Shown here one piece after another: positions 4,916 to 64,000 of a DNA stretch of 64,000 nt; the first letter of the stretch is position 1; each line of letters starts with the position of its first letter. A program made the position numbers and the translations under genes. The notes below the pieces were generated by a model. That model was given only the letters and a program-made list of their open reading frames with translations, did not search any database and had not been told where the DNA came from. This DNA is from a phage, in the NCBI GenBank assembly GCA_012401045.1, contig GCA_012401045.1_4704.2. One strand, written 5' to 3'.

Positions 4916-6526
4916 ATGGACCCAAAACAGATAGCCATTAAGATTATTACGTTACTGTTTCGTAATGCACAATTGAACCATCCCGATCCCAGTACGATCG
5001 AACATGTTAAATCCGTCTTAGATAAAGTCGAACCCCCGAAAAACCATCTCGCTACAGACGTAGATAGAGAGGTTTTCAACAACCTGATGAATACCATTCA
5101 TTGGATGTTGGAACAACCATTATCGGAACCTTTCGATAAACAACAGTTGTTACAAAGGATACGTTTGGATTGCCTTGAACAAAGCAATCTTTACGAGATT
5201 CTTGCCGACGGACTGTACGATATCGAAGACGACGCTCATATCAGTAAGGTCTGTTCACTCTATTACAACGAATTACGTAATCTGATTACCCGTCGTCGTG
5301 TTTTCGAAACCTTTAGAAACACGTACATGGATATCAGTAACGGGCGACTTGGGGATAAAGAATTTTTCGATGCAATGGCGAATCTGAAATTATCGCTAGA
5401 CAGTATCGAAATGGATACCGAAAATCCCGAAGAGATGTCGTGTATGATTGACGGCTTTATCGCTGACAGCGAAGACGATATCGAGAAAGTCGAACGTATG
5501 TTCGTCAAAGCGATGGAACGTAACAGTCCTGAAGGTGGATTTGTAACCGGCTGGCAAGGCTTTAATAAAATGTTGGGGTCGGTCGGCGTTTTACGTCGCG
5601 GTACCTTAGGACTGATCGGTGCAATGCAGCACCGGAACAAGTCAGGCGTGTTGTTAAAACTGTTCACACATCTGGCATTGTACAACAAACCCCATTTCTT
5701 TTTCCCGGAGCGAGCAAAGAAAGCATTACTGATTCATTTGTCGACAGAAAACGAAGTGGAAGAAAACACGCTTCAGATATACAAGAACATGCGAGAACAG
5801 GAAACAGGCGAATATGTCGATATTCGTAAGATTGACCCTCGCGAGGCATCACGTTATGTGTTGAAGGTGTTCAACGATGCGGGTTTCTCTGTTTGTATGC
5901 GTCGTGTTGATGGGATGAGTTATAAACAACTCGCTAATCTCATCGACCATTTCGAACGCATGGGTTATGAAGTCATGGCGTTGTTCATTGACTATCTGAA
6001 AATGTTCTCATCGGAAGGGTTGGATAGAAATGGACCGACCGGCGCATGGCTCCAAGAACTCTTCAACAAAGTACGTAACCTCTGCAGCGTCAAACGTATT
6101 TTAGGTATGACTGTACACCAGCTGTCATCCGATGCGAAGATGCGTGCGCGTGATGGTAACGATGAAGAGTTTGTTGACCAGGTCGCAGGTTTAAGTTACT
6201 GGGATGGTTGTAAAGGGATCGACCGTGAGATTGACCTTGAAGTGATTGTTGATATCGTTAAGGAGCCGGGCAAACGTCAAAGCTGGCAGGTCTTTGCGTT
6301 AGGGAAAGACCGTCAACCGGATAACGGTTCAACGAAACCTGAAGACAAACATTTCGCGATGCCATTCCAAACCATCGGGATGCTTCCTGATGATTACGGT
6401 AAGAAAGCAGTATATTGCCGCAAGGTTGGCGGACAACCTGTCTCCGAGGGAGGTAAAGGTCCGTGGAACAAGTTCGATGAAAACGCAGCACCGAGTAATG
6501 AATTACAATTTGATTTAGAATTTTAA
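4916..6526 (+). CDS. hypothetical protein (536 aa)
   Basis: Track ORF 4832..6526 starts at GTG inside the divergent gene; first ATG at 4916 has GAAAGGA RBS 8 nt upstream. Ends at a bidirectional terminator. Confidence 0.7.
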   Translation: MDPKQIAIKIITLLFRNAQLNHPDPSTIEHVKSVLDKVEPPKNHLATDVDREVFNNLMNTIHWMLEQPLSEPFDKQQLLQRIRLDCLEQSNLYEILADGLYDIEDDAHISKVCSLYYNELRNLITRRRVFETFRNTYMDISNGRLGDKEFFDAMANLKLSLDSIEMDTENPEEMSCMIDGFIADSEDDIEKVERMFVKAMERNSPEGGFVTGWQGFNKMLGSVGVLRRGTLGLIGAMQHRNKSGVLLKLFTHLALYNKPHFFFPERAKKALLIHLSTENEVEENTLQIYKNMREQETGEYVDIRKIDPREASRYVLKVFNDAGFSVCMRRVDGMSYKQLANLIDHFERMGYEVMALFIDYLKMFSSEGLDRNGPTGAWLQELFNKVRNLCSVKRILGMTVHQLSSDAKMRARDGNDEEFVDQVAGLSYWDGCKGIDREIDLEVIVDIVKEPGKRQSWQVFALGKDRQPDNGSTKPEDKHFAMPFQTIGMLPDDYGKKAVYCRKVGGQPVSEGGKGPWNKFDENAAPSNELQFDLEF

Positions 6527-6530
6527 ACGC

Positions 6531-6590
6531 AAAAAAAAAAAAAGATTGTACGGTTCCCTCCTCCAACCCGTAAGGGAAGGAGGAAGGTTT
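6531..6590. terminator. bidirectional intrinsic terminator (A13 run plus CCCTCCTCC...GGAGGAAGG hairpin) between convergent genes
   Basis: Hairpin flanked by a 13-nt A run on plus strand (T run for minus-strand transcripts). Confidence 0.7.
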
Positions 6591-6603
6591 ATGACCGCTT
6601 TGA

Positions 6604-6930
6604 TTAACTTATTGTCATGAATTCATTAGGTGAAAATTTCCAGCCGTTCTCAGTGAGAAGCGTGTTGAGTTTTGCCGCAACGATAAGCCATGCATGCATG
6701 GCCGTTACATCGTATTGGCGATTCACTCGACGTTGGTTTTCGATATTGATTTGCTCCTGTTCAGTGATGTTTGGATAAAGTGCGATAGCGCTAGGTTTAC
6801 CCAGCGCGCTAGTCATCACCGCCGTACATTCACTGATAATGTTGTTTAAGTGGTAGTTATACACCGTTCCACGCATGACGCGATGACGGCATTCGATAAT
6901 AGCGTCGTAAATGATTTCTCGAGTAATCAT
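6604..6930 (-). CDS. hypothetical protein (108 aa)
   Basis: ATG-initiated ORF immediately upstream of the hairpin plus T-run terminator. Confidence 0.6.
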   Translation of the reverse strand: MITREIIYDAIIECRHRVMRGTVYNYHLNNIISECTAVMTSALGKPSAIALYPNITEQEQINIENQRRVNRQYDVTAMHAWLIVAAKLNTLLTENGWKFSPNEFMTIS

Positions 6931-6936
6931 GATAAT

Positions 6937-7338
6937 TTAAAACATACGGTCGTTTTTAGCACGGGCGTCCATTACCAGATCGTAGATGCCTGCGGTTCGT
7001 AAGCACTCTTCGTAGTAACGATGTGTGCCTTCCTCAGCCATCCACGATAACCCTCGGCTATCCGCAACGATAACCAGTTTGTTATTGTTGAACGCACACA
7101 CCACACGGTAGGTCGCGTTGTTATTCGGATCGCGAGTGATAAGTTCGTAAACGCCGTTAACAGGTTTACTGAATTCGCCGTTTAACGGAACGAGTTCGGT
7201 AGTACCTTCAGCAAACGTTACGTTGATCGGTGATGGGTCTTTAGCGATAACAGTATATTCCACATTGTGTTCTTTACTGGTCATAATACCGAAGTAAGAA
7301 CTCACAGGGGAACGCGGTACACTAAGAATATTAAACAT
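6937..7338 (-). CDS. hypothetical protein (133 aa)
   Basis: ATG start with AAGAGG RBS; tightly packed with neighbours. Confidence 0.65.
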   Translation of the reverse strand: MFNILSVPRSPVSSYFGIMTSKEHNVEYTVIAKDPSPINVTFAEGTTELVPLNGEFSKPVNGVYELITRDPNNNATYRVVCAFNNNKLVIVADSRGLSWMAEEGTHRYYEECLRTAGIYDLVMDARAKNDRMF

Positions 7339-54881: not shown

Positions 54882-57494
54882 TTAAGCGTCCGGCGTAAAA
54901 TCAAAAGGAATGTCCGTACGAATGATACCATAACGTTTTCCGAGGAAATAAAACTCTTCGGGAACCTGACCGGGAATAATGCTATCACCGATGAACTGCG
55001 GATACGCCCAGATGTACTGAGTGAGTCCTTCGAACATATCCAGGTTATTTGCGTGGTTACCCATGATACGTTTCCAGAGTTCGCGTTTATACGGCGTTTT
55101 AACATCGAAACCATAAAGCGGTGCAAGATCTTCACCAGGAACAAATCCCAGGTAATAGTGAATCTGACTAACCGGGAAACCAAGCGTATCTCGCGGAATG
55201 GTGATCGCTTGCTCAGCTTTGGTGACATGCGTTTCAATAATCCAGTCGTAACACTCTGAATAGAACCGATCGAATTTCTCTGGATTATACCATGCTTTGG
55301 GAAGATTCAGTTTCTCCGTGAACGCATTCGACATGATCGTCGGTAAGAACGGAAGAACACCGGTTTTGATCTGCGTGTATTTCGATTTTACCCGGTTAAC
55401 CAAATTCCAGCAACTGTATCCTAACTGTTCGTTACAAAACTCAACGTAGAGATCGTAATCACCGCCGGATAATGGGTTGTTGATATCACCAATGTCTGCA
55501 GCGTATTTGTTGGGATATCGGTTATTGAAAGCCAGTTTGGTTTGGTAATCGTAGATACACGGTTTGTTGTTCGCTGTATTGATCCACCACCAGGGTTCAC
55601 CCACCTGTACACAAATGTCCTGGACATGAGGGTAAATAATATCGGCAAACGCGGTTAACACATCCCCTAACCACGCCATCGCCTGTTGGTTACATGGAGA
55701 CAGCAACCAGGACGGTGGTGTATATCCGGTTGCTGCGATGTTTCCTTCCCAATCCTGCTGCGCCCACTCGAACGGGCAGGCTGTACTCATCAATTCGTAA
55801 CTTAAACTGATGGTGACAGAGAAATGGTGTTTTGCAGCATATGCGGCGAAAGCTTCATGCCACGCGATACAGGGTGGATTTAATACATCCGTGGTGTTCA
55901 CCAGTAACTTACCCGCACTTGGCGTCCAGACAGTATCGTAGAAATGCGACATTCCAACATAATGCACTAATTCATCTTGATACCCCGCATAAACCAGGTT
56001 CTCAAATACACGCTCTGGCGTGATGTTGTAATGGTCATCGTAAGCGGTTATCGCACGAAGTTCGTGTGGTGTACAGTGGTGACGATTAACCGTCATTTCC
56101 TGATACACCCCATCGATAGGAAGAATCTCGAGGGTTAAACCGAGGTCGATTGGCGTTTCCAGATAGGTCGTTTCAGTCGCACCTTCCTTATAATGTCGAG
56201 AACTCATGCTGAACATCAACGATGCTACCGATTCGAGTTCGATAGGTTCGTCAGCATAGAACCCCGCCATTGCGTCATTGAAATCGATCGTTACGATTGC
56301 GCTTCTACCGTCTTCAGAGACATCGGTGGCGTATCGGGTTAATGAGATATACTGACGGCTATCGTCTTTGTGTACGACGGTTAAAACCGGCGGGTTTTCG
56401 GTATCTGCAAAGTTACGCTGATCGCCAGTAAACGTGATCTTCGCTTTAAAGATCAAACCGAATAACGACGTCATGGGATCATACGCAATACAACCGTGAT
56501 CCAGCGTATCCGTTGTCCGCCATTCTATCCCGACCAACCCGTTAGCGGTATGGCATCGCATATACGCATTAAGGACCATGTCTTCACTGACAACCGCGAA
56601 GTTCTCTGTTGACTGACCGTTGATAATCCAATACATCGGTTGCCAGAGGTTACGCGTACCTTTTGCGTAGCGGTAGGTTGGTGCGCCTTTAGGGTTGCCG
56701 TTATTGAGATGGAATACGGCAGTACCTTGATAATGGTCGTTCGTATTAATCGGAACACTGTAAGCGTCACCGAGGTCCGTACGTTCCACCTTCGTGACCG
56801 TTGCGTTTTCAAATAACCCACGCAACGCTGGTAAACCGATATCTTCAGGCGCGTTTTCTCGACGAATCGCATCCGCGATGCGATGGGCTAAGGCGGGGTA
56901 AATAGCTTCACCCTGTTGTAGGTTTGCAAGACCTACAAAGCGATCAGGGTCGATACCAGCAATCAATAACTCAACATCACCCTTCGTTCTATCGTCGTTA
57001 AGATATTTCAGTCCGGTAAGGTCAAGATGCTGAATAAGCGACAACAGGTTGTATTTACGGTTTTCAACAGTTAGTACAAGATCGCCTGCCCAAACCAAAC
57101 TTCCCTCATCCGCTGTTACTTTAACGGATTGTCGGCCTGTGGTAGACGTTGTTGTCGTTTTATTTAATTGTCCTTGTAGGAAGTCGGTTGCGAGGTCAAA
57201 GGCAATACCGTAACGGTCAGCGACCGCTTGCATGATTTCACGTAACTGGGTATCTTCTTCAATGATAATCTTGACAGGTATTCCCAAGAACGCTTTAGCA
57301 AGGTCTCGTTTAACCAACGAGACGAATACGGATTTGTAGTATCGGCTTCCATCTTTCCCTTTAAAAAGAATGGAGGTTGTTTCGGGTGCCGATAGAACAC
57401 GTGCAAATACAACATCGTCGGAAGTAAGAGAAAGTCCGTTTTTCTCGTTGACCAATCTTAGTATTTCATTTTGCGCGGTTTCATGTAACTTCAT
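54882..57494 (-). CDS. putative tailspike/receptor-binding protein (870 aa) with N-terminal anchor domain
   Basis: N-terminal ~170 aa homologous to 63370..63897 (RDLAKAFLGIPVKII block); Trp-rich C-terminal region (GEPWWW); lies in tail fibre module. Confidence 0.55.
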   Translation of the reverse strand: MKLHETAQNEILRLVNEKNGLSLTSDDVVFARVLSAPETTSILFKGKDGSRYYKSVFVSLVKRDLAKAFLGIPVKIIIEEDTQLREIMQAVADRYGIAFDLATDFLQGQLNKTTTTSTTGRQSVKVTADEGSLVWAGDLVLTVENRKYNLLSLIQHLDLTGLKYLNDDRTKGDVELLIAGIDPDRFVGLANLQQGEAIYPALAHRIADAIRRENAPEDIGLPALRGLFENATVTKVERTDLGDAYSVPINTNDHYQGTAVFHLNNGNPKGAPTYRYAKGTRNLWQPMYWIINGQSTENFAVVSEDMVLNAYMRCHTANGLVGIEWRTTDTLDHGCIAYDPMTSLFGLIFKAKITFTGDQRNFADTENPPVLTVVHKDDSRQYISLTRYATDVSEDGRSAIVTIDFNDAMAGFYADEPIELESVASLMFSMSSRHYKEGATETTYLETPIDLGLTLEILPIDGVYQEMTVNRHHCTPHELRAITAYDDHYNITPERVFENLVYAGYQDELVHYVGMSHFYDTVWTPSAGKLLVNTTDVLNPPCIAWHEAFAAYAAKHHFSVTISLSYELMSTACPFEWAQQDWEGNIAATGYTPPSWLLSPCNQQAMAWLGDVLTAFADIIYPHVQDICVQVGEPWWWINTANNKPCIYDYQTKLAFNNRYPNKYAADIGDINNPLSGGDYDLYVEFCNEQLGYSCWNLVNRVKSKYTQIKTGVLPFLPTIMSNAFTEKLNLPKAWYNPEKFDRFYSECYDWIIETHVTKAEQAITIPRDTLGFPVSQIHYYLGFVPGEDLAPLYGFDVKTPYKRELWKRIMGNHANNLDMFEGLTQYIWAYPQFIGDSIIPGQVPEEFYFLGKRYGIIRTDIPFDFTPDA

Positions 57495-57516: not shown

Positions 57517-58158
57517 TTAAATGTACTGCTTACCGCCCACGAAGGAAGTTAACCAGTTCCCGCTGACGAGTTGTGATACCCAGCCTGGAACGGCTCTACC
57601 ATTCTGGCTCATGATGTTACCACACCAACCAGGGAATCCGGGACGGATGTAATAGAAAGTTAAATTGTAGAGATGGCAATTCCATACCGCAACGTTATGT
57701 TTACCAGAAACCGCTTTAAAGACAAACGCGACAGGTAACGGAGACGATAACAATTCGGTCACAGGGACGGCTGACCAGTTCGCATTCGCGTTCCATGGTT
57801 GCCAGGTATGGCTGCGCGAGTCGCAATATACGTTACCGTTGTTACCGCGCCCACCCGCATTCCACCACAGCGACGGACTCATGTTCTTAAGTGAGGTAAA
57901 TTGCTGCGGTGGAATATTCGGAATGATAACAGGGTTGGTGCCTTGTCCATGTTTCTTTTCTTTTGCGTTCACATAGCCGTTTATCGATTCGAGGTATTTG
58001 GTACCAGGATAATTGTTCTGGACTTGTGTCGCAATATCACGAACGTCGAACGTCCAGCAGATCATGGTGTTGTAGTAAGCATCGGTGTTGTCGTACCATG
58101 CGTTACCATCTTGTAAACGTGCACCACTATTCGGTGTTTTATCTGTGCTTATAGCCAT
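57517..58158 (-). CDS. hypothetical protein (213 aa), paralog of 58261..58917; fibre-module accessory protein
   Basis: Shares PGFPGW[AC]GN[IV]MSQNGRAVPGW[AV]SQLVSGNWLTSFVGGK C-terminus and HGQ...VPNIP block with neighbour. Confidence 0.65.
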   Translation of the reverse strand: MAISTDKTPNSGARLQDGNAWYDNTDAYYNTMICWTFDVRDIATQVQNNYPGTKYLESINGYVNAKEKKHGQGTNPVIIPNIPPQQFTSLKNMSPSLWWNAGGRGNNGNVYCDSRSHTWQPWNANANWSAVPVTELLSSPLPVAFVFKAVSGKHNVAVWNCHLYNLTFYYIRPGFPGWCGNIMSQNGRAVPGWVSQLVSGNWLTSFVGGKQYI

Positions 58159-58260
58159 GGTGTTGTCCTATACGTTGGTGGTTGAGGTGGCGGATATCGG
58201 ATGCGTGTTGTCGTCAGGTAATACATACAGAAACGCCCACTGATAAAACAGCAGCTTCTT

Positions 58261-58917
58261 TTAAATTGAATTTAGATATCGCTTACCACCAACAAACGAC
58301 GTCAACCAGTTCCCTGAAACAAGCTGCGAAGCCCAGCCAGGCACTGCCCTACCGTTCTGACTCATCACGTTACCTGCCCATCCCGGAAAACCTGGTACCA
58401 TTTCGTATATATTGAACGATTCTATCTGGAACGAACCAAGCTTAACGTAGTGCGTTGTTGATCGGTACTTAAATTCAATAATAACAAAGAACGGATGTGA
58501 TTGTAAGTCGGACATTCTAATAGGTGCCGAGAGATTACCCGCCGACCATGGTTTCCACGTATGCTTACGGCTATCACAGTCAATATTACCCATTGAACCG
58601 TTAGCTGACGCGTTCCAGAATAGCTTATAGTCATACGCGGCGACATCGCCACTCCATCCTTGGAGAGGTATATTTGGTACATATACCCCGTTATTCCATT
58701 GTCCGTGTTGAATTTCTTCAGCATCGCCATGCCCAGAGACATATTCTAAGTACGCGTTTGGGTGTCTAGCGACGACTTCTCGCGCAAAAGAACGCAAGTC
58801 AAAAAGATGGGCGACAATGCTGTTATTATAAGCCACTCTCCAGCCGGGATCACGCCACCCTAATTTGCCGTCAGCGTGCCTTCTAGACGTGAACCCTATA
58901 GTTCGCGCTATTGCCAT
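58261..58917 (-). CDS. hypothetical protein (~218 aa), paralog of 57517..58158
   Basis: Track ORF extends to 58968 inside a hairpin; internal ATG (codon 18) has GAGG RBS and aligns with the paralog N-terminus (MAI...). Confidence 0.6.
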   Translation of the reverse strand: MAIARTIGFTSRRHADGKLGWRDPGWRVAYNNSIVAHLFDLRSFAREVVARHPNAYLEYVSGHGDAEEIQHGQWNNGVYVPNIPLQGWSGDVAAYDYKLFWNASANGSMGNIDCDSRKHTWKPWSAGNLSAPIRMSDLQSHPFFVIIEFKYRSTTHYVKLGSFQIESFNIYEMVPGFPGWAGNVMSQNGRAVPGWASQLVSGNWLTSFVGGKRYLNSI

Positions 58918-58963
58918 TTTATACCTCGTTCCTATTCTCAAAAAGGAAATTTCATACGATGAC

Positions 58964-59006
58964 GCCATAGCAGCTCCTCCAACCCGTCAGGGAAGGAGGA
59001 GCATAC
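58964..59006 (-). terminator. hairpin (GCTCCTCC aacccgtcaggg AAGGAGGAGC) downstream of lipoprotein gene
   Basis: Loop sequence identical or near-identical to other family members. Confidence 0.55.
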
Positions 59007-59010
59007 TTAA

Positions 59011-59517
59011 TTACTTACTGATAACCTCAACGGAGTTGGGATCAGCGATCAATGCACGGTCGGTAGAACAATTGAAGAAGACCATCCCAACACCATCGCC
59101 GTTCGAGTTCAGGGTTGAACTTGCGTAAGACAATGTTGGTTTATTCATGCGGTAGAAGCGTTCGCTGGTTGCGGTATTGAACCCCAGGTCAACGTAGTCT
59201 TTCACCGTGGTATACAACTGGGTGGACTCGAAAACGGTTACCGGAGAGTCAACGGTAAATTGACTACCTTCGTCCACAACCAGAACTTTATCGTTCCAGA
59301 TTTCAGTGGTTGAGAACTTCGGTTTCCAATGTTCGAATTCCTGGGTTGCACCCCAGCAAGAATACACAGCGAGATTGCTGTTCTTCTCGACTGGTTTCAA
59401 ACCCACCAGTTGCGTCAGGTCTTTATCCAGGTTCGGTAAACCTTCCAGCGTAGCACACCCACCCAGAGAAAGCACCATCAACATACCAAGAACGATCGCA
59501 CAAAGTTTCTTCATCAT
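59011..59517 (-). CDS. predicted outer-membrane lipoprotein (168 aa)
   Basis: N-terminal MMKKLCAIVLGMLMVLSLGGC: signal peptide with lipobox-like LGGC, Ala at +2. AAGGA RBS. Sits between tail fibre gene and fibre-module paralogs. Confidence 0.6.
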   Translation of the reverse strand: MMKKLCAIVLGMLMVLSLGGCATLEGLPNLDKDLTQLVGLKPVEKNSNLAVYSCWGATQEFEHWKPKFSTTEIWNDKVLVVDEGSQFTVDSPVTVFESTQLYTTVKDYVDLGFNTATSERFYRMNKPTLSYASSTLNSNGDGVGMVFFNCSTDRALIADPNSVEVISK

Positions 59518-59565
59518 TAGATTTCCTTATGTGTTAACGGAAGTGACTTCCATAAGGATTGATGA

Positions 59566-62500
59566 TTACTTTTTGAGCGCTTTAAGTTCTTCTTCCATCG
59601 CTTCCACTTTTGCCGTAAGCTTCTGTACTTGTTTGATTAATGGAACCACCAAACGTTCGTACATAACACCTTCGGCGACGAGTCCGTTAGAAGAAACGAT
59701 AGCGGGGTCATCTTCTTCGGTTGCATCACGCCAATGCACGTATTGTGGTGCGATCTCACCAACCTCTTCGGCAATCAACCCATACCAACCCCAATCCTTG
59801 TTGTCGGCTTCGCAGGTAGAACGATACCAGACAGGACGCATCTCCAATACTTTATCCGCTTGTTCATCCGTGATATTCTCGATATCTTTCTTATAGCGCC
59901 GCGACGACGTTGAACGAAACACATTGTTGATCCCAGCAGTAGGACTGATATACATATTAGCCCCGCTGGTTGTAGTGCTAATGTCCCATACCGCAAATCC
60001 GCCGTTACTCCCATTTCTCACGACCAACGTATTGGCAATAATATCCAGGTTATTGTTGTAACCGGTTAACTGGTTTTCGGTGACAAAATCGGATAAGTTA
60101 ACGGAGTAGTTCTTGCTGTTATAACAACGACGCCATCCTGGGCTGTTGGTGCTGCCATTATAGTTGTCGTAGCTATAAATGAACTCGGAGTTGGTTTTCG
60201 CACCACTGACGGAAGACGTGGTTGCGGTGGTAACACGGATAGTGTAGTTCGTCATCCCGAAGCTAACGACCTCGATAACCGCACCAGCCAGAGGAATAAT
60301 ACCACATTTGGTTTCACTGTCTGGGATGTATGCGCTATCGGCAGCAGCGAAGGAGCAACGTGCGACCCAGGCACGGGTATTGAATGCACCTTGGTTCTGT
60401 AATAACGTAATAAACGATGAGGTCGTAATCGAGCTGTTATTATCACCTGTGATCAACCAGCCGGTTGGACATGCGGTAGCACCAACGTTTTTCGCTGTTA
60501 GCGTGATGTTCTTCGATCCGTCGAAGGCTACGCCGCTGATGGTACGTGCAGTCTGTAGCTTCGTCGCCGTTGCCGCGTTCCCTGATGTGTTCTGGTTCCC
60601 TGCCGCATTAACACCAGGCAGATTGATGTTCGCACTACCGTCGAAAGACACCCCGCCAATGGTGCGGGCTGTTTTCAGTTTTGTCGCCGTGGCGGCATTA
60701 CCGGTTGTGTCTTGGTTACCGGTGGTGTTTACCCCAGGTAGATTGATATTTGCCGTTCCGTTAAATGAAACGCCGCCAATCGTCCTTGCCGTTTGCAACT
60801 TCGTTGCAGATGCCGCATTCCCCGTGGTGTTTTGGTTGCCTGTTGTATTCACACCCGGGATACTATCCTTAGATGTGTAGATCTGTGCCCATTCCGACCA
60901 TTTCGCATCGGTTGAATCACGACGTGAACGTAGGTAAGCTGGAGCGTGTGCACCCGAGGTACCTGACCATCCAATGAGGATTTCACCTTCGCCGACCGAT
61001 GAAGCGCCTTTAAGATGAACAACGTTACCGTAGGCTGTAGGGTATCCGTTATTGTACGCTTCATACATCTGGATACCCGTATTGCTGCCCTGGGTCGCAT
61101 TAGCTAAAGCGGTGACCCGTCCCTTGGAAGCGAGCACGTTAATGCTAAAGCTAATATCGGTTGTACCGTCAAAGGCGACCCCATTAATCCTCCGCGCTGT
61201 TTGGAGTTTCGTGGCAGTAGCCGCATTACCAGAGGTACTCTGATTGCCTGCTTTGTTCACACCTGGTAAATCAATGTTGGCGGTTCCATCAAAGGACACG
61301 CCCCCTATGGTTCTCGCCGTCTGAAGTTTTGTTGCTGAACCAGCGTTTCCGGAAGTGCTTTGATTACCCGCCGCGTTGACACCTGGTAGGTTAATGCTAG
61401 CAGAACCATCAAAAGAAACTCCACCGATCGTAATAGCTGTTCGCAACTTCGTGGCTGTCGCAGCGTTACCCGTCGTATTCTGATTACCAGCTGCATTGAC
61501 GCCAGGTAATGCGATATCAGCTGTGCCATCGAACGCGACACCTCCGATTTTACGGGCGGTTTGTAGCTTGGTTGCTGTAGCAGCATTACCGCTGGTATTT
61601 TGCGTACCGGCTTTATTTACACCAGGAAGATCGATGTTAGCAGAACCATCGAAGCTGACGCCACCTATCGTTCTTGCAGTAGCAAGTTTAGCGGCTGTAG
61701 CAGCGACGTTACCGACTTTTAACCATTCTCCCCATGGACCATCCACACCGTTCCATGATGCCGTTAAACTGCGCACGTATATGTTTCCTGTACGTACTGT
61801 GTAACGTTGTGTTCCACCGAATTGACCGGCTGGGAGCACTTCGATGTAACCTACAGCATTTGCTTCAGGGAAATTGTGGGCAGCATCGGCATTCGTTGAT
61901 GTTTGTTTGGACCAAATACCCACAGACGCTTCAACCGGACCGTAGGTATCCAGATTTGCATCGGTGGGGAGCTGTCCTCGAAAACGTCGGAATAATGAAG
62001 CCGATAACCCCAACGTTGTTTGCATCCCTTCAATGCTTGACTGCGATAGAAGCGCCCGAGCTGTCGACGTGATGGCCGCTAAAGCAACCTTATCCGTACC
62101 GGTAAAAAACGGGAATTTGTTTGCTGATGTTGCTAAACCTGAAAGGGCGGTCAGTAATGCGTTAAGGGGTTGTTTCCCGGCTAGCGCGTTAGTCACAGTC
62201 GTTGCAAAGTTTGGATCATTACCTAACGCTTGAGCTAACTCGTTAAGCGTATTTAGCGCTTCTGGAGACGAGTCGATCAGCGACGCGATAGCACGCATCA
62301 CAAATTCCGTGTTGGCGATCTGTTGACTGCTATCGTTCTCTGCAGCCGTAGGTGCTGCTGGGATACCGGTGAACACAGGGTTATTAAGATCCGCCTTAAG
62401 GGCGATGAGACGTCTAAGTGCTTCAACATCGACTTTCAGGTTTTCCCATCCGACGAGATAACCATCACCGGTTGTGTGATAACGGTTGTACCAAAAATCG

Positions 62501-63363
62501 CCATTAACGCCAAAATAAAATATTCCCTTCTCTTCGTATTGTGGGCCAGAACTGTTCCGTGATGAGCTAATGTATTTTATTTCGATAAGGCCGTTGAATA
62601 CCACTCCTGGGATTATTTTGTTGTCTCCAGCTGACTGTGATACCTGGTAAATCCCCGGGGTTGCGGCTTTAACCCACGTTAAGAATTCTGTTACTCCAGC
62701 GGTACCGCTGAAATTCTTAACGTCGGTAAGTATTGCCCCATAACCGAACATACCGGGTAGAGCCACTCGTCCGCTGGTACGGTCACGAATATCTGTTGCA
62801 ACAACAGGTAATTGTTTACGAACGGCATTAACCGCTTTAGGTGTGGCCGATTTTGTCTCGTCGTCGCTATCGGTTTCATTACTTAGAATAGTTAAACCGC
62901 GTGTAGCAGTAGTTGCATCAGGAAGAAATGCGTTATCCAACACCTTAAGCTGTACTGCACTCGTATTACTAACAACGACATGCACTTGACAGTTAAGAAC
63001 GCTGGTTGCGCCTTCGGTAGGCGTAGGCTTATATCTTTCTGGTGCACTGCAGACGGCAATCAGAACACCTTGGTCATCGTACAGACCGATCTCACGTACC
63101 CAGAACCCACCTTGACCAGCAGGAATAATACCCTCAACGATAATCCTGGTTGTGCTATCACCATCCGCATGGATATTAGAAACTTCCCCACGATAAACTT
63201 CGTGAACAAGCGCTGTTTGGCTGGCGGTCGGGGTTGGGATCGAGCCGTTACCATCACCAACGGCAAAGTGTGTGATTTTTAGTTTCTCACCGTCGGGAAG
63301 TAACGCGGCGGTGATACGTTCTGCTCCTTTATCGGTAACTACCGTTATATATGCTGTACTCAT
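59566..63363 (-). CDS. tail fibre protein (1265 aa) with tandem ~40-aa fibre repeats and C-terminal S74-type intramolecular chaperone domain
   Basis: N-terminus resembles tail-fibre N-terminal domains (ITHFAVGDGNG...WVREIGLYD). At least eight repeats of NAATATKLQTARTIGGVSFDGSANINLPGVN. C-terminal SSRRYKKDIENI...WYGLIAEEV matches the S74 chaperone domain pattern. Confidence 0.8.
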   Translation of the reverse strand: MSTAYITVVTDKGAERITAALLPDGEKLKITHFAVGDGNGSIPTPTASQTALVHEVYRGEVSNIHADGDSTTRIIVEGIIPAGQGGFWVREIGLYDDQGVLIAVCSAPERYKPTPTEGATSVLNCQVHVVVSNTSAVQLKVLDNAFLPDATTATRGLTILSNETDSDDETKSATPKAVNAVRKQLPVVATDIRDRTSGRVALPGMFGYGAILTDVKNFSGTAGVTEFLTWVKAATPGIYQVSQSAGDNKIIPGVVFNGLIEIKYISSSRNSSGPQYEEKGIFYFGVNGDFWYNRYHTTGDGYLVGWENLKVDVEALRRLIALKADLNNPVFTGIPAAPTAAENDSSQQIANTEFVMRAIASLIDSSPEALNTLNELAQALGNDPNFATTVTNALAGKQPLNALLTALSGLATSANKFPFFTGTDKVALAAITSTARALLSQSSIEGMQTTLGLSASLFRRFRGQLPTDANLDTYGPVEASVGIWSKQTSTNADAAHNFPEANAVGYIEVLPAGQFGGTQRYTVRTGNIYVRSLTASWNGVDGPWGEWLKVGNVAATAAKLATARTIGGVSFDGSANIDLPGVNKAGTQNTSGNAATATKLQTARKIGGVAFDGTADIALPGVNAAGNQNTTGNAATATKLRTAITIGGVSFDGSASINLPGVNAAGNQSTSGNAGSATKLQTARTIGGVSFDGTANIDLPGVNKAGNQSTSGNAATATKLQTARRINGVAFDGTTDISFSINVLASKGRVTALANATQGSNTGIQMYEAYNNGYPTAYGNVVHLKGASSVGEGEILIGWSGTSGAHAPAYLRSRRDSTDAKWSEWAQIYTSKDSIPGVNTTGNQNTTGNAASATKLQTARTIGGVSFNGTANINLPGVNTTGNQDTTGNAATATKLKTARTIGGVSFDGSANINLPGVNAAGNQNTSGNAATATKLQTARTISGVAFDGSKNITLTAKNVGATACPTGWLITGDNNSSITTSSFITLLQNQGAFNTRAWVARCSFAAADSAYIPDSETKCGIIPLAGAVIEVVSFGMTNYTIRVTTATTSSVSGAKTNSEFIYSYDNYNGSTNSPGWRRCYNSKNYSVNLSDFVTENQLTGYNNNLDIIANTLVVRNGSNGGFAVWDISTTTSGANMYISPTAGINNVFRSTSSRRYKKDIENITDEQADKVLEMRPVWYRSTCEADNKDWGWYGLIAEEVGEIAPQYVHWRDATEEDDPAIVSSNGLVAEGVMYERLVVPLIKQVQKLTAKVEAMEEELKALKK
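60470..61700 (-). repeat. tandem ~120-bp repeats encoding the 40-aa tail-fibre repeats, in two blocks split by a non-repeat insert
   Basis: Antisense track ORFs 60308..60880, 61052..61243 and 61496..61804 show the mirrored periodic peptide pattern. Confidence 0.7.
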
Positions 63364-63369
63364 GGTGTT

Positions 63370-63897
63370 TTATCCTGGATAAATAGTGATGATATCACCA
63401 ATGACAGTTGTGGCACCGGCGTAAAGATGAGCCGGAGATACATCGTGTTGGTTTGTCACAGTAAGATCCAATCGACCACGCCAAACCATGGAGGTATTTG
63501 CGATGGGGATAGAAATCTTTTTGGATATATCGTCACGAAAATCAATAACAGTGGCAAGGGTAACCGCATCAAAGTCAACGTCGGGGTCAAAGACGAACCC
63601 GTATTGATCTGAAATCGCCCGAATAATCGCATGTATAGTTGTTGTCTCAACGGACTCTAAAACGATTTTTACCGGTATTCCTAAAAATGCCTTCGCGATA
63701 TCGCGTCGAGCGTAAACGATAAAACTTTCACCACACCACTTTGTTCCTTCATTTGCTGTGACGATCACTTTTGCCCTGTTAGCACCAGAACTCCCATCCA
63801 AGGTTAATGTAAGATCGGAGTTGCTGAACACGCTACTGTTACGTCTGTTTATCAACGACGTCAGTTCGTCTTTCCATGGCGGGTAAAGTGAACGCAT
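63370..63897 (-). CDS. fibre-anchor-domain protein (~175 aa), homolog of N-terminus of 54882..57494
   Basis: Track ORF starts at TTG (63918); ATG is codon 8 with GGAGGAGGG 11 nt upstream. RRDIAKAFLGIPVKIV block. Same frame as the downstream fibre gene, separated by TAA plus two codons. Confidence 0.6.
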   Translation of the reverse strand: MRSLYPPWKDELTSLINRRNSSVFSNSDLTLTLDGSSGANRAKVIVTANEGTKWCGESFIVYARRDIAKAFLGIPVKIVLESVETTTIHAIIRAISDQYGFVFDPDVDFDAVTLATVIDFRDDISKKISIPIANTSMVWRGRLDLTVTNQHDVSPAHLYAGATTVIGDIITIYPG

Positions 63898-64000
63898 AAG
63901 CGCACCCTCCTCCAACAATCAAATTAAATTGTAAAACGCCTCGAGACCAAAGTGTGATTCGAGGTAAACGTAAACAGTCTTAACGACCGCATAAAATTCC

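Follow-up and report, generated by a model that had tools for sequence, protein, structure and literature searches.

Identity of the fibre gene and its place in the virion

The 64-kb stretch of phage DNA analysed here (the window) contains a long gene for a protein with tandem 40-aa repeats. We asked whether these repeats make the gene change its length, and with it the host range of the phage, or whether its variability lies elsewhere. An earlier sequence-only reading had proposed a fibre with an N-terminal fibre domain, two repeat blocks split by an insert, a cysteine-containing tip and a C-terminal S74-type chaperone. This domain order was borne out, with profile, sequence and fold evidence in agreement. 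The gene and its proximal parts are located as follows.

59566..63363, minus strand: tail-fibre gene, a single ORF of 1265 aa, orthologue of Goslar gp090 (HOV27_gp090)
62941..63363, minus strand: Phage_tail_fib N-terminal domain, aa 1-141 (PF12571, E=1.4e-41, profile positions 1-140 of 150)
62818..62913, minus strand: Phage_fiber_2 repeat, aa 151-182 (PF03406, E=3.3e-8)
61711..62817, minus strand: proximal shaft, aa 183-551, with three features: a lineage-specific domain, a segment reading 'LDTLNELAxALGNDPNF' and a knob that ends in WGEW

The protein belongs to the gp090 orthologue group, the tail fibre of Goslar-like chimalliviruses. Position and flanking genes are orthologous to those of Goslar gp090 (YP_009820775.1), the gene order is conserved and the N-terminal domain is identical. 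The flanks are 94-96% identical to Goslar DNA and the 5' 1.9 kb of the gene is collinear at 93.6%; over the 5' 62% of the fibre gene the DNA identity was 89.4%. The Goslar-like arrangement of the locus was also found in 6 metagenome contigs of ~209-249 kb (L005, L083, L085, L086, L087 and L089). The exact 1265-aa protein recurs in public assemblies on ~238-kb contigs, and public records name the gene "hypothetical protein" or "phage tail protein". Its PHROG matches comprised 54 families, annotated mostly as tail fibre, and aa 355-413 of the proximal shaft matched PDB 9d93, 'tail collar fibers gp4' (E=8e-9). The phage is very probably a Goslar-like jumbo phage (Chimalliviridae) of enterobacteria, with 59566..63363 as its tail-fibre gene, carrying a modular tip and a self-cleaving chaperone. 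The Goslar-like phages are the only known group of nucleus-forming jumbo phages of E. coli.

Goslar gp90 was found by mass spectrometry in purified virions (bioRxiv 10.64898/2026.04.21.720040). Since cryoEM did not resolve the Goslar tail fibres in the same study, we infer the baseplate attachment of gp090-type fibres from the N-terminal family. By analogy, the Phage_tail_fib domain would anchor the fibre to the baseplate periphery, and as in other members of the family the fibre would be a homotrimer. The protein could instead form another filament of the virion, for instance at the collar or as a whisker, or belong to the DUF7941 fibre cloud that has been proposed for Goslar. DUF7941 genes flank the fibre gene at 63370..63918 and 54882..57494, the Pfam family name mentions 'tail-collar' and the Goslar fibres are unassigned in the cryoEM density (bioRxiv 10.64898/2026.04.21.720040). 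However, the collar filaments of Goslar were assigned to gp126 dimers and not to gp90 (bioRxiv 10.64898/2026.04.21.720040), and a Pfam profile search showed that the DUF7941 domain is absent from the fibre protein. In addition, the N-terminal domain, the shaft repeats and the tip are of the type found in P1 S, Mu S and prophage side tail fibres. We regard a location away from the baseplate as very unlikely and treat the protein as a long tail fibre.

The gene is damaged in two public assemblies: L002 has a 2.7-kb in-frame deletion and a frameshift, and P0124 is truncated before the S74 domain. Because of this damage, the fibre may be dispensable under some conditions, or the two records may contain sequencing errors. 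A promoter and terminator scan found no enrichment over shuffles.

The repeats are diverged in their DNA

The repeat region of the shaft consists of three parts.

61144..61710, minus strand: repeat block 1, aa 552-740, with 4 complete 40-aa units and the first 29 aa of unit 5
60877..61143, minus strand: knob inside unit 5 (knob B), aa 741-829, with one half of the unit on either side
60475..60876, minus strand: repeat block 2, aa 830-963, with the last 18 aa of unit 5, 2 complete units and a final partial unit

The sequence-only reading had described five plus three near-identical repeats separated by a non-repeat insert of ~90 aa. Eight 40-aa units are indeed arranged in 2 blocks (5+3), at aa 552-751 and aa 848-967, with 96 aa between them. 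The insert is present as well, but a unit HMM placed it within unit 5, which is composed of aa 712-740, the 89-aa knob (741-829) and the last 18 aa (830-847). In block 1, the complete units scored 83-88 bits and the partial unit 5 scored 42 bits. The distal half of the long shaft is an array of these 40-aa units (eight in the unit count, nine in the overall model), one of them interrupted by a knob. Near-identity did not hold, since the six complete units are 68-90% identical as protein and the two terminal units only 42-62% identical to the others. Goslar gp090 has the same kind of 40-aa units with the same knob inserted within a unit; it differs in having 7+4 units instead of 5+3 and a proximal shaft that is ~34 aa longer.

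Knob B is 77-92% identical in E. coli prophage fibres. Neither a Pfam match nor a PDB sequence match was found for it; the repeat-plus-knob region as a whole had 0 hits among PDB sequences at E<=10. An AF2 model of the knob from a shallow 9-sequence alignment had a mean pLDDT of 42.5 and was discarded as unusable. When the proximal shaft, the repeat block, knob B and the tip were each scanned alone against Pfam (E<=10), no meaningful family was found.

The ~120-bp DNA repeats had been thought identical enough to recombine. Between units, the DNA identity ranged from 46 to 68% and averaged 60%, and no exact word common to two units exceeded 13 nt. A repeat search at the DNA level showed only 65-70% identity, and Tandem Repeats Finder detected no array even at a minimum score of 30. 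At the conserved residues of the units, identical codons occurred with a frequency of 0.29, compared to 0.311 +/- 0.014 in shuffled controls. Since this is the shuffled expectation, the synonymous sites of the units are saturated, and recent duplication or gene conversion of the units is excluded. Because the DNA units are diverged, no array is detectable and the codon choice is at the random level, the idea of units identical enough to recombine fails. Near-identical head-to-tail DNA units with long exact matches, which would mark a recombination-prone tandem array, were not found in the gene. A repetitive protein sequence, tempting as this reading is, need not mean unstable DNA.

Further readings were considered and set aside. 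Misassembly as the origin of the repeat structure was rejected, since units this diverged would not be collapsed by an assembler and independent contigs encode the exact protein as well. Codon scrambling as a selected design against recombination is unsupported, because simple saturation accounts for the pattern; the fraction of shuffles that did not exceed the observed value was 0.065 for the window, 0.69 for Goslar and 0.37 for L085. Some ORFs run antisense to the repeats, for example 60308..60880 on the plus strand (190 aa), and were taken as by-products of the Ala/Thr/Gly-rich repeat coding.

The number of units probably changes rarely

The array could nevertheless be prone to recombination, with repeat-number variants within populations and with a fibre length and host range that vary accordingly. 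Among the Goslar-like phages the number of units does differ: block 1 has 4, 5, 7 or 8 of them and block 2 has 3 or 4. Hybrid units were also found. In unit 2 of the window, an in-register hybrid, the 5' end corresponds to Goslar unit 2 and the 3' end to Goslar unit 4. In L005, unit 4 corresponds to window unit 4 at the 5' end and to window unit 5 at the 3' end, and the low-coverage contig L088 contains a unit 1/unit 6 hybrid. These sequences support the view that in-register hybrid units mark past unequal exchanges. Against a rate visible in populations stand the divergence of the DNA units and their random codon choice described above. Even in the 8-unit variant L085 only an old triplet duplication was seen, with 73-78% identity. 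Moreover, all five full-length sequences read from the 90%-identity cluster of the fibre have 5+3 units, 10 of the 15 members listed for this cluster are 1265 aa long, and one 5+3 shaft bears two different tips. We consider a recombination-prone array improbable. The claim that gain or loss of units leads to length variation applies on the evolutionary timescale only; the DNA similarity of the units is too low for homologous recombination or slippage to be frequent enough to be seen in a population. The preferred reading is that the repeats are old and kept by selection on the protein, and that their number would change rarely, through in-register exchange.

A Mu S'-type knob is followed by a distal stalk

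The C-terminal part of the protein comprises three modules.

60103..60474, minus strand: Mu S/S'-type knob, putative receptor-binding domain, aa 964-1087, with sequence and fold match to PDB 8ju3
59908..60102, minus strand: distal stalk/tip, aa 1088-1152, directly before the predicted cleavage site, travelling with S74 in homologues
59566..59907, minus strand: Peptidase_S74 intramolecular chaperone, aa 1153-1265 and stop (PF13884), with Ser1153 at 59905-59907 and Lys1158 at 59890-59892

The divergent distal region contains the expected cysteines, at positions 965, 1003, 1020 and 1080. A phmmer comparison of the knob with PDB 8ju3 gave E=1.7e-20, with a homologous stretch of aa 956-1087. Structure prediction of the tip, which had been suggested as a check, led to the same knob: Foldseek aligned the AF2 tip model with 8ju3 at E=6.5e-9 and 44% identity. 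The AF2 monomer model is of mediocre quality, with a mean pLDDT of 64; in it the stalk has a low pLDDT and is unmodelled. The host-recognition module at the C-terminus would consist of the knob together with the short distal stalk.

The fibres of phage Mu (S/S') and P1 (S), represented by PDB 8ju3, share with the fibre studied here the N-terminal family, the kind of 40-aa shaft units and the homologous knob. By analogy to Mu, the receptor is probably a surface saccharide. In contrast to the Mu and P1 fibres, the knob is followed here by a stalk and an S74 domain. Proteins of E. coli and E. albertii prophages and of ~110-kb plasmids, annotated as 'tail fiber domain-containing proteins', are 60-62% identical to the knob-stalk-S74 part over its full length (P0003, P0004). 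The stalk and S74 also occur together in homologues without the Mu-type knob (e.g. P0010, P0015), and in such prophage or plasmid proteins (e.g. P0010) the stalk-S74 part is 66-69% identical. The prophage and plasmid proteins (P0003, P0004, P0010) differ in having other N-terminal parts and belonging to other phage types.

The S74 chaperone has a predicted cleavage site

The C-terminal S74-type domain was confirmed by profile search. PF13884 matched aa 1153-1209 at E=3.4e-8 and 34.1 bits, above the curated cut-off (22 bits), and the match spans positions 1-57 of the 58 in the profile. When the protein is aligned with 8hqz_d, a solved L-shaped tail fibre (E=5.9e-5), its TS|SRRYK falls on TS|GIEYK. 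Across 12 homologues of 44-97% identity, the residues S1153, R1155, R1156 and K1158 do not vary. The sequence thus predicts Thr1152-Ser1153 as a conserved scissile bond with Lys1158 at +5. In phage T5 pb1, the Thr1263-Ser1264 bond is cut and Lys1269 is the base (PMC4690869). The AF2 model shows a long C-terminal helix (model residues 307-336, pLDDT 92-94). Foldseek matched the model to the MyRF ICA domain 7dc3 (E=7.7e-4), whereas 3gw6, the chaperone of endosialidase, was matched only weakly (E=0.33).

The S74 fibres and spikes, such as the CIMCD of K1F endosialidase, T5 pb1 and the DT57C-type LtfA, likewise have a C-terminal PF13884 domain directly after the receptor-binding end, a Thr-Ser bond with a Lys at +5 and a long C-terminal helix. 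They differ in that the receptor-binding region here is unrelated to the 'bullet' of pb1 or to a sialidase, and cleavage of the fibre is predicted from its sequence. By analogy to K1F endosialidase and T5 pb1, the last 113 residues would act as an intramolecular chaperone that trimerises first and templates the folding of the distal fibre. The domain would then remove itself by a cut between Thr1152 and Ser1153, catalysed by Ser1153 and Lys1158. The mature fibre would have 1152 aa, with the distal stalk as its C-terminus and the tip exposed.

Alternatively, the domain might serve trimerisation at the C-terminus without cleaving itself off, or be no more than a decayed remnant, and in both cases be kept in the mature fibre. 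The modest Pfam score and the weak match to 3gw6 would fit this, whereas the end-to-end coverage of the profile and the invariant serine and lysine, placed as a Thr-Ser pair with a Lys five residues downstream, argue against it. Furthermore, a fragment of T5 pb1 with the uncleaved chaperone fails to inhibit phage adsorption, from which the authors infer a masked receptor site (PMC4690869). Retention of the domain is quite improbable, and self-cleavage is the preferred reading. The annotation of the gene can now be tested with a named cleavage site and a predicted mature length of 1152 aa.

The fibre ends in an exchangeable cassette

Comparison with Goslar showed that the homology of the DNA ends within the fibre gene.

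59555..60494, minus strand: exchangeable tip-plus-chaperone cassette of ~940 bp with the Mu S'-like knob, distal stalk and S74, without DNA homology to Goslar

The cassette replaces the Goslar segment L001 11205-12396, and the flanks are 87-94% identical. Where Goslar has a glycine-rich tip (Gly_rich_2, PF21722) and a separate Caudo_TAP protein, gp089, that folds it, the window has the Mu S'-type knob and an S74 domain in cis. The left breakpoint lies in the final repeat unit at about 60493-60495 and the right joint just 3' of the stop codon; comparison with L005 gave identical breakpoints. A third tip type occupies the same position in L005, L087 and L089; P0127 and P0135 have it too, on a 5+3 shaft that is near-identical. 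A recent donor is not identifiable, because the search of E. coli genomes and phages showed only ~70% DNA identity over parts of the cassette.

In Mu and P1, the fibres are folded with the help of separate U/U' (Caudo_TAP) chaperones, and site-specific inversion switches their tips. The fibre shares the PF12571 N-terminus of the P2 gpH/Mu S/P1 S type, but a separate downstream Caudo_TAP gene was not found: tblastn of Goslar gp089 against the 64-kb window gave a best E=1.6, and the next gene downstream encodes a 168-aa protein with no Pfam family. Overall, this is an ordinary modular fibre, whose modules are all known and whose end is a swappable tip-plus-chaperone cassette. Our results leave the understanding of tail fibres in general unchanged.

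Host-range variation had been attributed to the repeat number. Since two different tips occur on one and the same 5+3 shaft, specificity follows the cassette rather than the shaft length. Replacement of the whole tip/chaperone cassette of ~0.94 kb is a far more plausible cause of host-range change than the length of the shaft. A wider proposal, which we make tentatively, is that Goslar-like chimalliviruses may keep a fixed-joint cassette with three alleles at the end of the fibre gene. An exchange would swap the tip together with the chaperoning mode (S74 in cis, Caudo_TAP in trans, or no adjacent chaperone). By homologous exchange, the cassette would thus do for these phages what the invertible G/C segments do for Mu and P1. 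If this is true, one shaft would be a natural test bed for three chaperone strategies that fold one fibre. Independently of this proposal, the host-recognition diversity of the Goslar-like group lies in a cassette that is compact (~0.5-1.2 kb) and has conserved joints, useful for engineering the host range of Goslar. An identical S74-type fibre is present in assemblies labelled E. coli and Salmonella, and these labels hint at a cross-genus host range.

Domain organisation and identity of the fibre

The fibre gene, 59566..63363 (-), is a single uninterrupted open reading frame encoding 1265 aa with the N-terminus MSTAYITVV. The protein matched 54 PHROG families, the majority annotated as tail fibre, and has the following parts.

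aa 1-141: Phage_tail_fib (Pfam, E=1.4e-41, above the curated cut-off)
aa 151-182: Phage_fiber_2 (Pfam, above the curated cut-off)
aa 552-751 and 848-967: eight 40-aa units
aa 712-740: first portion of unit 5 (unit HMM)
aa 741-829: 89-aa knob interrupting unit 5 (unit HMM)
aa 830-847: last 18 residues of unit 5 (unit HMM)
aa 956-1087: distal knob, a homologue of 8ju3, the structure of Mu tail fibre S/S' (E=1.7e-20 by phmmer)
aa 1088-1152: stalk, accompanying S74 in the knob-less homologues P0010 and P0015
aa 1153-1209: Peptidase_S74 (Pfam, 34.1 bits; curated cut-off 22)

The sequence-only reading had described an N-terminal fibre domain, two blocks of 40-aa units, a Cys-containing distal part and an S74 domain. 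Pfam, unit and residue evidence recovered this anatomy, with the distal cysteines at 965, 1003, 1020 and 1080. The "insert" of that reading was located by the unit HMM within one unit, not between two arrays. We consider it highly probable that the gene encodes a modular, presumably trimeric tail fibre with an in-cis S74 chaperone, a replaceable cassette and a slowly drifting shaft length. The S74 chaperone would fold the distal fibre end in cis and then cut itself off. Specificity would evolve by replacement of the cassette, and rare in-register exchange of units would lead to the slow drift of the shaft.

Escherichia phage vB_EcoM_Goslar is a nucleus-forming jumbo phage of 237 kb. The first 62% of the window fibre gene showed 89.4% DNA identity to its tail-fibre gene gp090, the neighbouring genes are collinear and the flanks are 94-96% identical. 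Goslar gp90 was detected by mass spectrometry of purified virions, and the tail fibres were not resolvable in the cryoEM maps (bioRxiv 10.64898/2026.04.21.720040). A filament other than a baseplate fibre is a rival reading that we hold to be very improbable. Public assemblies bearing the labels E. coli and Salmonella enterica (serovar Bovismorbificans) contain the exact 1265-aa protein under the name "hypothetical protein", and its clustered relatives are located on ~238-244 kb contigs. S. Enteritidis was a source of close relatives on ~238-kb contigs. It seems that these jumbo phages accompany isolates of E. coli and Salmonella alike, whether in a carrier state or as contaminants.

Tip and chaperone form an exchangeable cassette

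The DNA homology to Goslar ends near window 60495, within the final repeat unit, and restarts at 59554, 12 nt beyond the fibre stop codon. The window cassette in this interval (0.94 kb) encodes aa ~956-1265, and the Goslar cassette (1.19 kb) encodes a glycine-rich tip (PF21722) and the separate Caudo_TAP assembly protein gp089. No TAP homologue was found anywhere within the 64-kb window, where the gene after the fibre encodes a conserved 168-aa protein without a Pfam family. A third cassette, with a short knob and no S74, occupies the same interval in the ~238-kb Goslar-like contigs L005, L087 and L089; in L005, the one checked downstream, no chaperone gene follows the tip. The third tip is also present in the related proteins P0127 and P0135 (1107 aa, 5+3 units), whose shaft is almost identical to that of the window. 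Three cassettes at the same interval, one of them on a near-identical shaft, argue that the tip is probably exchanged together with its chaperoning mode as a single block at conserved joints.

For aa 929-1265, AF2 produced a model (mean pLDDT 64; around 75 in the knob) that had 8ju3 as its best Foldseek match (E=6.5e-9, 44% identity) and ended in a long, confident C-terminal helix. In T5 pb1, the Thr1263-Ser1264 bond is cleaved, with the serine activated by Lys1269 (PMC4690869). These residues correspond to Thr1152-Ser1153 and Lys1158 of the window fibre, and the S74 domain aligned to the solved L-shaped tail fibre 8hqz_d with TS/SRRYKKDI on TS/GIEYKKDV. S1153, R1155, R1156 and K1158 were invariant in 12 of 12 homologues of 44-97% identity. 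By analogy with pb1 we infer cleavage, with a 1152-aa mature fibre and a released 113-aa fragment as the predicted products. The S74 fold matched the MyRF ICA domain (E=7.7e-4) and, weakly, the endosialidase chaperone 3gw6. This weak match might suit an S74 domain retained as a non-cleaving remnant, which the invariant residues make quite improbable.

All modules of the fibre have known relatives: P1 S, Mu S and the prophage side tail-fibre family, the S74 intramolecular chaperones for the C-terminal module and Goslar gp090 for the backbone. The prophage fibres P0003 and P0004 (E. coli and E. albertii) share the complete knob-stalk-S74 module at 60-62% identity; no recent donor could be named, the closest DNA being ~70% identical. 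Swapping of tips and chaperones is a familiar theme in phage fibres. Particular to this chimallivirus case are three alternative cassettes between fixed joints, and chaperoning that changes between in trans and in cis while the shaft stays the same.

The repeat units are old

The units have the form GNAATATKLQTARTIGGVSFDGxANIxLPGVNxAGNQxTx. Protein identity was 68-90% among the six complete units and 42-62% for the two terminal ones. The DNA repeats had been taken as near-identical, which did not hold: pairwise DNA identity was 46-68% with a mean of 60%, no two units shared an exact word of more than 13 nt, and Tandem Repeats Finder reported no array in the repeat DNA with the minimum score lowered to 30. 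A repeat search picked up the 120-nt period at only 65-70% identity. The synonymous sites are saturated, since an amino acid shared by two units was encoded by an identical codon 29% of the time, against 31.1 +/- 1.4% after synonymous shuffling within the repeats and 36% expected from background codon usage. The units are old, and their likeness is maintained by protein-level selection; neither gene conversion nor recent duplication accounts for it.

Selection for differing codons against recombination was also considered and was unsupported (the share of shuffles no higher than the observed value was 0.065 for the window, 0.69 for Goslar and 0.37 for L085). Opposite the repeat region run two long antisense ORFs, 60308..60880 (+) of 190 aa and 61496..61804 (+) of 102 aa. 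The Ala/Thr/Gly-rich coding of the repeats most likely accounts for them, and neither is likely to be a gene.

Unit number varies between phages

The 90%-identity cluster of the fibre has 63 members. Ten of the 15 listed were 1265 aa long, and the remaining lengths were 1107 aa (exchanged tip), 1119 aa (truncation) and 1055 aa (partial sequence). The five full-length sequences that were read all had 5+3 units; unit number appears constant among close relatives. In the wider Goslar-like group it differs between phages and does not follow the tip type.

Unit number and tip type in Goslar-like phages
Window, L084, L086: 5+3 units, S74 tip
L083: 4+3 units, S74 tip
Goslar: 7+4 units, Gly-rich tip with Caudo_TAP
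L085: 8+3 units, Gly-rich tip
L087: 5+3 units, third tip type
L005, L089: 4+3 units, third tip type

With L085 as the reference (units 1-8/9-11), the window units correspond to 1,5,6,7,8/9,10,11'. L085 itself carries an old triplet duplication, (2,3,4)~(5,6,7), of 73-78% DNA identity. Window unit 2 is a hybrid whose 5' end corresponds to Goslar unit 2 and whose 3' end corresponds to Goslar unit 4, and L005 unit 4 is a hybrid of window units 4 (5') and 5 (3'). Because of these hybrid units, the changes in unit number are explained as in-register exchanges. The sequence-only reading had proposed recombination-prone repeats; S74 was matched and unit number does vary, but this heterogeneity is evolutionary and not an instability within populations. 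An actively unstable array would fit the differences between phages, but is unlikely beside the apparently constant number in close relatives.

The proximal shaft contains a short, poorly conserved segment (window 61965-62093; Goslar L001 9270-9495) in which Goslar is ~100 bp (about 34 aa) longer. This segment is a second, non-repeat source of the length difference between orthologues.

Damaged alleles and neighbouring genes

The Goslar-like contig L002 (74 kb; Logan SRR6504847) has a fibre gene of only 362 aa, at 6001-7089. A 2.7-kb in-frame deletion has fused aa ~165 with aa ~1064, with a 10/11-nt microhomology at the junction, and an additional A in an A-run shifts the frame of the last 12 codons. 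Because the microhomology is very short, we regard a real deletion as more likely than an assembly join. If real, it would suggest that fibre loss is possible in some settings. P0124 (1119 aa, 238-kb contig) has a frameshift shortly before the S74 domain. In the 4-kb low-coverage contig L088, units 1 and 6 are fused into a hybrid, with the knob and intervening units lost, and a frameshift follows. Both could be sequencing errors or genuine defective alleles.

The 168-aa ORF, 59011..59517 (-), lies directly downstream of the fibre and is 94-97% conserved in DNA irrespective of the adjacent cassette. Its start, MMKKLCAIVLGMLMVLSLGGC, by eye resembles the signal peptide of a lipoprotein, lipobox included. 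From its position, we speculate that it might act in the manner of T5 Llp, as a lipoprotein for superinfection exclusion or receptor masking. Two further proteins without a Pfam family, 58261..58968 (-) of 235 aa and 57517..58158 (-) of 213 aa, are paralogues of 47% identity whose C-terminal ~50 aa are near-identical. An insertion of ~670 bp (58210-58877) contains the 235-aa paralogue; it is missing in Goslar, L002 and L005, where the 213-aa paralogue stands alone. DUF7941 proteins are encoded on both sides of the fibre gene, at 63370..63918 (-) and 54882..57494 (-), the latter (870 aa) additionally with NCTSP_N and TIM-barrel_NCTSP domains. Proteins of this family are reportedly the proposed constituents of a 'fibre cloud' surrounding the Goslar virion.
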